Source: Escherichia coli (GTDB lineage: Bacteria; Pseudomonadota; Gammaproteobacteria; Enterobacterales; Enterobacteriaceae). Taken from it: a DNA stretch of 64,000 nt. The notes under the pieces are model-generated. The model was given only the letters and a program-made list of their open reading frames with translations. It did not search any database and was not told the DNA's origin. The stretch lies in assembly GCF_050320075.1 (NCBI RefSeq), contig NZ_CP190018.1, one strand, 5' to 3'. A program made the position numbers and the translations under genes. The number at the start of each line of letters is the position of its first letter. The first letter of the stretch is position 1. Positions 52,763 through 53,512 of this stretch are shown in pieces.

Positions 52763-53479
52763 ATGCGTCCAGCAGGCCGTAGCAATAATCAGGTGCGTCC
52801 CGTTACCCTGACTCGTAACTATACAAAACATGCAGAAGGCTCGGTGCTGGTCGAATTTGGCGATACCAAAGTATTGTGTACCGCCTCTATTGAAGAAGGC
52901 GTGCCGCGCTTCCTGAAAGGTCAGGGCCAGGGCTGGATCACCGCAGAGTACGGCATGCTGCCACGTTCTACCCACACCCGTAACGCGCGTGAAGCGGCGA
53001 AAGGTAAGCAGGGTGGACGCACCATGGAAATCCAGCGTCTGATCGCCCGTGCTCTTCGTGCGGCAGTAGATTTGAAAGCGCTGGGTGAGTTCACTATTAC
53101 GCTGGACTGCGACGTGCTTCAGGCTGATGGTGGCACGCGTACCGCTTCGATTACGGGTGCCTGCGTGGCGCTGGCAGATGCGCTACAGAAGCTGGTGGAA
53201 AACGGCAAGCTGAAAACCAACCCGATGAAAGGGATGGTAGCCGCAGTTTCTGTCGGGATTGTGAACGGCGAAGCGGTTTGCGATCTGGAATACGTTGAAG
53301 ACTCTGCCGCTGAAACGGACATGAACGTGGTGATGACTGAAGACGGGCGCATCATTGAAGTGCAGGGGACGGCAGAAGGCGAGCCGTTCACCCATGAAGA
53401 GCTTCTCACCTTGTTGGCGCTGGCCCGAGGGGGAATCGAATCCATTGTAGCGACGCAGAAGGCGGCGCTGGCAAACTGA
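52763..53479 (+). CDS. rph: Ribonuclease PH, full length (238 aa)
   Basis: [46 protein letters not shown] ... ending KAALAN. Confidence 0.95.
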
Positions 53480-53484
53480 TTTTT

Positions 53485-53512
53485 AAGGCGACTGATGAGT
53501 CGCCTTTTTTTT
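53485..53512 (+). terminator. rph terminator / pyrE attenuator hairpin (AAGGCGACT-GATG-AGTCGCCTT followed by T8)
   Basis: Perfect 9-bp stem and T-run 6 nt after the rph stop codon, upstream of pyrE. Confidence 0.85.

Follow-up and report, generated by a model that had tools for sequence, protein, structure and literature searches.

A wild-type rph-pyrE operon with full-length RNase PH in a non-K-12 Escherichia coli

The stretch of Escherichia coli DNA that was analysed (64,000 nucleotides, hereafter the window) almost certainly carries an ordinary wild-type rph-pyrE operon, in which the intrinsic terminator behind rph would serve as a UTP-sensitive and translation-coupled attenuator of pyrE. 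The rph gene encodes the complete RNase PH, the run of five G residues from which one G is missing in the rph-1 allele of K-12 laboratory strains is intact, the attenuator is identical to that of K-12, and the layout of rph stop codon, hairpin and U-run is conserved across Enterobacterales. The functioning of translation-coupled attenuation in this strain, which the sequence-only reading had called intact, is supported by these sequence features together with the literature on K-12.

The rph gene and its comparison with K-12

The features of the locus, all on the plus strand, are as follows.

52721-52726, TATAAT, perfect hexamer upstream of rph, putative -10 element of the rph-pyrE promoter
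52751-52754, GGAG, ribosome-binding site of rph, 8 nt before the rph ATG (sequence reading)
52763-53479, rph, full-length RNase PH, 717 nt, 238 amino acids plus TGA (translation, TIGR01966)
53429-53433, G5 run, site of the single-G deletion of rph-1, intact in the window (alignments)
53448-53450, TAG, the premature stop of rph-1 strains, out of frame and silent in the window
53480-53484, T5 spacer (TTTTT) between the rph stop and the hairpin (sequence reading)
53485-53506, attenuator hairpin, 9-bp stem AAGGCGACT/AGTCGCCTT with loop GATG (RNA fold, terminator scan, K-12 identity, cross-species conservation)
53485-53493, left arm of the hairpin, AAGGCGACT
53494-53497, loop of the hairpin, GATG
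53498-53506, right arm of the hairpin, AGTCGCCTT
53505-53512, T8 tract of the intrinsic terminator, with the two leading T's paired in the stem (overlap with the right arm)
53532-53537, GAGGAG, ribosome-binding site of pyrE (sequence reading)
53545-54186, pyrE, orotate phosphoribosyltransferase, 213 amino acids (TIGR00336; identical DNA is pyrE in RefSeq)

The rph reading frame extends from the ATG at 52763 to the TGA at 53477-53479, and its translation ends in ...ATQKAALAN, in agreement with the sequence-only reading, which had described a complete RNase PH of 238 amino acids ending in KAALAN. In a profile search the protein scored 380.8 bits against the NCBIfam equivalog TIGR01966 (RNasePH), the cutoff of which is 141.5, and the match was full-length, with residues 2-236 aligned to profile positions 1-235 of 236. 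Identical DNA in the genome CFSAN061763 is annotated in RefSeq as rph (WP_001247093.1), and its start and stop codons are those of the window. The mechanical list of open reading frames placed the rph start at a TTG at 52739, giving 246 amino acids, and the position of the GGAG at 52751-52754 favours the ATG at 52763. The scan for consensus promoters upstream of rph reported no sigma-70-like site, and the TATAAT at 52721-52726 was not called because no -35 hexamer with at least 4 of 6 consensus matches lies at a distance of 16-18 nt.

The alignment of the window with the loci of MG1655 and W3110 showed GGGG in both K-12 strains opposite the GGGGG of the window at 53429-53433, and this is the sole length difference between the window and K-12 over rph-pyrE. 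As seen in the MG1655 translation, the K-12 frame runs into the TAG at window positions 53448-53450 and yields a product of 228 amino acids ending in ...ARGESNPL, and the in silico removal of one G from the window gave 228 amino acids with the same ...ARGESNPL tail. The RefSeq labels follow the same pattern, the rph of MG1655 being given as 'truncated RNase PH' and that of W3110 as a 'frameshifted' pseudogene. Since rph-1 is recognised by a G5 run that is one G-C pair short and by the 228-amino-acid product, the window with its GGGGG and 238 amino acids does not belong to this allele; the frameshift is absent from the window and present in both laboratory strains (G4, 228-amino-acid frame), as the sequence-only reading had stated for common K-12 laboratory strains.

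Downstream of the G run, window positions 53434-53560 are identical to MG1655, and W3110 is identical through 53549, where its aligned segment ends. Within this stretch fall the natural rph stop codon and the spacer behind it, the hairpin with its T8 tract, and the start of pyrE together with its ribosome-binding site. The rph-1 allele (MG1655, W3110, BW25113, EMG2) thus occupies the same locus with the same attenuator sequence as the window, and differs in that its stop codon lies 29 nt upstream of the normal one and 34 nt before the hairpin, in comparison to 5 nt in the window. Against the wild-type rph-pyrE operon of wild isolates and of the K-12 strains WG1 and NCM3722, no difference of substance was found, the gene order, the 238-amino-acid length and the 5-nt gap between stop and hairpin being those of the window. 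The earlier assignment of a wild-type arrangement to this strain is therefore borne out, with the G5 run intact, RNase PH at 238 amino acids, and the attenuator and pyrE leader the same as in K-12.

The attenuator and its conservation in Enterobacterales

The rph gene ends just before the hairpin: the last base of the TGA is 53479, pairing starts at 53485, and the G-C pairs begin at 53487. The stem of 9 bp includes 5 G-C pairs and is followed by the T8 tract, so that a G+C-rich hairpin with a U-run stands between rph and pyrE. The hairpin and T run had been noted as following rph immediately; the stem begins five bases past the stop and the T8 tract ends at 53512 exactly as had been claimed. 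The RNA fold of 53470-53520 has a free energy of -17.3 kcal/mol, with a z-score of -4.0 against dinucleotide shuffles, of which 1 in 200 was equally stable. The terminator pattern scan also listed 53485-53506, and by itself this pattern is weak evidence because 2.4 such sites are expected by chance in the region. The weight of the predicted attenuator lies in its base-for-base identity with K-12 and in its conservation across species.

The gene behind the T8 tract matched the NCBIfam equivalog-domain profile TIGR00336 with 240.6 bits (cutoff 106.8), which identifies it as PyrE. At gathering thresholds, the Rfam search of the whole window returned nothing at the rph-pyrE locus. A permissive Rfam scan of 52400-53700 gave two matches, to RyhB (24.5 bits in comparison to a gathering threshold of 55, E = 0.07) and to HIV-1_SD (sub-threshold, E = 0.91), and both were rejected as chance matches since they reflect a generic hairpin plus U-run.

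For the conservation analysis, one genome per species was scanned for a conserved pyrE start, and the region upstream of pyrE was analysed in 116 Enterobacterales species; the sample holds at least 120 loci and is biased towards close relatives, as the search pattern required the conserved N-terminus of PyrE. In all of the 116 listed species except Budvicia diplopodorum, the rph stop codon is followed directly by a G+C-rich hairpin and a U-run. Across the listed species pairing starts at a median distance of 4 nt from the stop (4 nt in 58 and 5 nt in 34 of the 116) and G-C pairing at a median distance of 7 nt, with a median stem length of 9 pairs; U-runs with a length of 6-9 occur in 111 of the 116, and the spacer between stop and hairpin is TTTT or TTTTT in 71. 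Inspection of locus L120 showed a normal rph end, ...TTQKAALEN followed by the stop codon.

The outer pairs of the stem covary, with AAG/CUU in 65 of the listed species, AGG/CCU in 19, AAA/UUU in 8 and AGA/UCU in 2. The stem core GCGAC/GUCGC is near-invariant (108 of the 116), and the support from covariation is confined to the outer pairs because this core hardly changes; a compensatory change from A-U to G-C within the core was found in one species, and the stem of locus L043 reads GGCGGCU/AGCCGCC. The intergenic length between rph and pyrE varies from 57 to 200 nt, and where longer spacers were inspected the additional DNA was located downstream of the terminator. In L027, L043, L071, L077, L114 and others the spacer was enlarged to 110-200 nt by inserted, partly palindromic sequence, which in each case seen stood downstream of the U-run and left the interval from stop codon to hairpin free of insertions. 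In general, the conserved layout supports a functional coupling of the terminator to the completion of rph translation, which would have been kept throughout the sampled species. The GCGAC...GUCGC core and the spacer of four to five U residues are kept more tightly than a generic terminator hairpin needs, and there is a small chance, which we rate as unlikely, that the attenuator sequence matters beyond pairing, for example through a UTP-sensitive pause or the context of ribosome release, or that the 3' end of rph gives rise to a stable RNA that acts in its own right.

The hairpin and T8 tract could instead be a constitutive terminator of rph, with pyrE transcribed from its own promoter and free of translation-coupled attenuation, and the pattern of the site, which looks like that of any intrinsic terminator and is of a kind expected 2.4 times by chance, would agree with this. 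We consider it very improbable. The gap from the T8 tract to the pyrE ATG at 53545 is just 32 nt, and the promoter scan found no promoter-like site in it; a plain terminator would have no need of the constraint that holds the stop codon 4-5 nt before the hairpin in most of the 116 listed species; and publications tie the level of pyrE to where the rph stop lies (PMC2784333, PMC5933015).

The established attenuation model may be set out as follows for the wild-type operon. When UTP is low, RNA polymerase would be slow through the U-rich end of rph, the ribosome translating rph would keep pace with the slowed polymerase, and a ribosome at the TGA would cover the 5' arm of the hairpin, so that the terminator would be blocked and pyrE transcribed. 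When UTP is plentiful, the polymerase would outrun the ribosome, the hairpin would form, and most transcripts would stop at the U8 tract. With the rph-1 allele, the ribosome would leave the mRNA 29 nt earlier, the hairpin would always form and pyrE would be under-expressed, a defect that the window lacks. The effect of rph-1 that is described as polar on pyrE is an increase of termination at the intrinsic attenuator through lost ribosome coupling, and not classical Rho polarity.

The mRNA channel of the ribosome covers about 12-15 nt 3' of the P site. Based on this general knowledge of the footprint, the channel of a ribosome whose A site holds the TGA should extend to about 53489, inside the left arm, a geometry that fits the model. 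The occlusion of the hairpin by the ribosome, the co-transcription of rph and pyrE and the response to UTP are predicted for this strain. The same logic of UTP-sensitive attenuation is known from the pyrBI leader of E. coli, where UTP-dependent pausing sets the distance between polymerase and ribosome and the ribosome blocks the hairpin of an intrinsic terminator. The two systems differ in that pyrBI uses a short dedicated leader peptide, whereas in rph-pyrE the upstream cistron is a full enzyme gene, which makes the attenuation intercistronic.

The passages of PMC2784333 and PMC5933015 that draw on Bonekamp et al. 1984 and Jensen 1993 describe pyrE as controlled by UTP-sensitive attenuation, in which the ribosome finishing rph must trail the polymerase closely, and passages of the same two papers cite read-through into pyrE in K-12 rph+ strains as known to rise at low UTP and to be dependent on translation of the end of rph. 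The 1-bp deletion in rph, the coupling of attenuation to translation, and the consequence of a stop codon nearer to the loop are described in PMC2784333, which also reports a recurrent 82-bp deletion in evolved MG1655 that shifts the stop to just past the loop. The expression data for the evolved strains with the 82-bp deletion showed no clear up-regulation of pyrE (PMC2784333), and because of this that work does not demonstrate uniformly a quantitative dependence of pyrE level on stop position. True reversion to rph+ relieves the pyrimidine defect and contributes to faster growth (PMC5933015).

The G5 run and rph variants among Escherichia coli genomes

The 921-nt region 52640-53560 was found in 5,424 of 5,426 complete E. 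coli genomes, and it is 100% identical in many wild isolates from human, animal, food and water sources, where it is annotated as rph and pyrE. The 59-mer across the rph-1 site in the form of MG1655 has an exact match in 168 of 5,420 complete E. coli genomes, and for the other 5,252 the sampled records, all but one, differ from it solely by a single-base gap, like the window. Among the 60 listed of the 168 carriers, 59 have chromosomes of K-12 size (4.5-4.7 Mb), and the records that name a lineage are derivatives of MG1655, W3110, BW25113, J53 or HMS174. The carriers are nearly all K-12 derivatives. Some K-12 strains such as WG1 have the wild-type G run, in agreement with the report that rph-1 was found in EMG2, MG1655 and W3110 and is absent from WG1 (PMC9997739). 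The window thus shows the normal state of the species, that of about 97% of complete E. coli genomes, which is already known and textbook.

Errors in homopolymers do occur, and the assembly of Kluyvera genomosp. 3 YDC799 (L072) has G4 at the rph-1 site; its rph has a second frameshift near the 5' end, and we took the rph-1-like frameshift there as a probable assembly error and not as biology. An error of this kind in the window, with the strain being in truth rph-1 or otherwise frameshifted, has next to no probability in our estimation: the spread sample, where the non-rph-1 records with one exception differ from the rph-1 59-mer by the single-base gap only, contains no other E. coli with a different run length, the 921-nt region is the same in dozens of independent wild isolates, and the rest of the window is clearly non-K-12 (the P4-like island at selC and an extra PTS cluster). 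One E. coli genome, 2015C-3101 (NZ_CP027221.1, positions 844-1559; L125), a non-K-12 human stool isolate of 5.3 Mb and the one exception among the 60 listed carriers, lacks one G of the G5 run and is annotated as 'frameshifted'. The G5 run may be a recurrent site of slippage or of sequencing artefact.

In addition to the G run, MG1655 differs from the window by 29 nucleotide substitutions over rph-pyrE, two of which alter residues of RNase PH: at window positions 53175 and 53409 (codons 138 and 216) the window encodes A138 and T216 and K-12 encodes V138 and I216. Among the Enterobacterales examined, A138 is shared by Kluyvera, Enterobacter and Budvicia, and T216 by Kluyvera and Enterobacter, with Budvicia having V at 216. 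Since the residues of the window match those of other genera, V138 and I216 are the derived state, and the RNase PH of K-12 carries two derived substitutions on top of rph-1. That these two residue differences from K-12 mark a full-length and non-functional rph, or that other substitutions have altered the attenuator relative to characterised strains, is extremely improbable, since apart from V at 216 in Budvicia the residues are those of the other Enterobacterales examined, TIGR01966 is matched end to end, and the attenuator and pyrE leader have no substitution in comparison to K-12.

The source of the window is a non-K-12, rph+ E. coli, a result that opens no new question and has bookkeeping value. 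Studies of laboratory evolution and growth are known to be confounded by the rph-1 defect (PMC5933015, PMC2784333), and its absence is useful knowledge for users of the strain, in which, to judge from the DNA, pyrimidine supply and the RNase PH-dependent 3' processing of tRNA and rRNA should be normal, unlike in MG1655, W3110 and BW25113.

Other loci of the window

The more unusual content of the window lies outside rph-pyrE, in a P4-like satellite prophage at 14009-25905 that is integrated beside the tRNA-Sec gene selC (25906-25996, minus strand) and carries a SIR2/DSR2-like gene. K-12 and CFSAN061763 have only a rhuM fragment at this position, and coverage of the whole island reaches 80% or more in just 31 of 5,426 complete E. 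coli genomes. Its features are as follows.

15140-17473, minus strand, alpha-type primase-helicase (Pfam)
17488-17808, minus strand, DUF5375 protein (Pfam)
18392-18919, minus strand, derepression/epsilon-family gene (Pfam)
20060-20812, plus strand, sid (named from the RefSeq annotation of a related genome)
20809-21054, plus strand, delta (by position)
21069-21641, plus strand, psu (Pfam)
21843-24563, minus strand, SIR2-domain protein, 906 amino acids, between integrase and psu
24576-25739, minus strand, integrase (Pfam)

The interval between integrase and psu is described as the defence hotspot of P4 (PMC9122126). Residues 12-295 of the protein encoded there match the SIR2 domain of Bacillus subtilis DSR2 (PDB 8k98) with E = 9e-38, with weaker matches to ThsA and KomC, and its C-terminal part of about 600 residues had no match in Pfam, NCBIfam, PADLOC or PDB sequences; the protein is probably a DSR2-like NADase with a divergent sensor domain. 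On the minus strand at 18924-19200, Rfam reported C4 antisense RNA (76 bits), isrK (71 bits) and c4-a1b1 (51 bits), all above their gathering thresholds, which is consistent with a P4-type immunity RNA region.

A type III secretion cluster (eip, ETT2-linked) at 33-10163 was identified by comparison with the annotation of CFSAN061763, and contains the following genes.

33-3149, iatC, inverse autotransporter, 3' part
3201-4898, minus strand, eilA
5101-6450, minus strand, IpaD/SipD-like tip protein
6494-7624, minus strand, open reading frame of 376 amino acids
7637-9418, minus strand, SipB-like translocator, 593 amino acids
9666-10163, minus strand, SycD-like chaperone

The SipB-like gene is intact in the window, at its full 593 amino acids, and is split by IS1 in CFSAN061763. 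Between yicI and yicH, from 30294 to about 37200, lies a sugar-utilisation cluster that is absent from K-12 W3110 and encodes a BglG-type antiterminator, PTS fructose-family components IIA, IIB and IIC, two aldolases, a ROK protein and a lyxose/mannose isomerase. Upstream of rfaQ, in the LPS core operon, Rfam reported a JUMPstart element (RF01707, 55 bits) at 61098-61136 on the plus strand, and the LPS core gene set of the closest annotated genome differs from the K-12 type.
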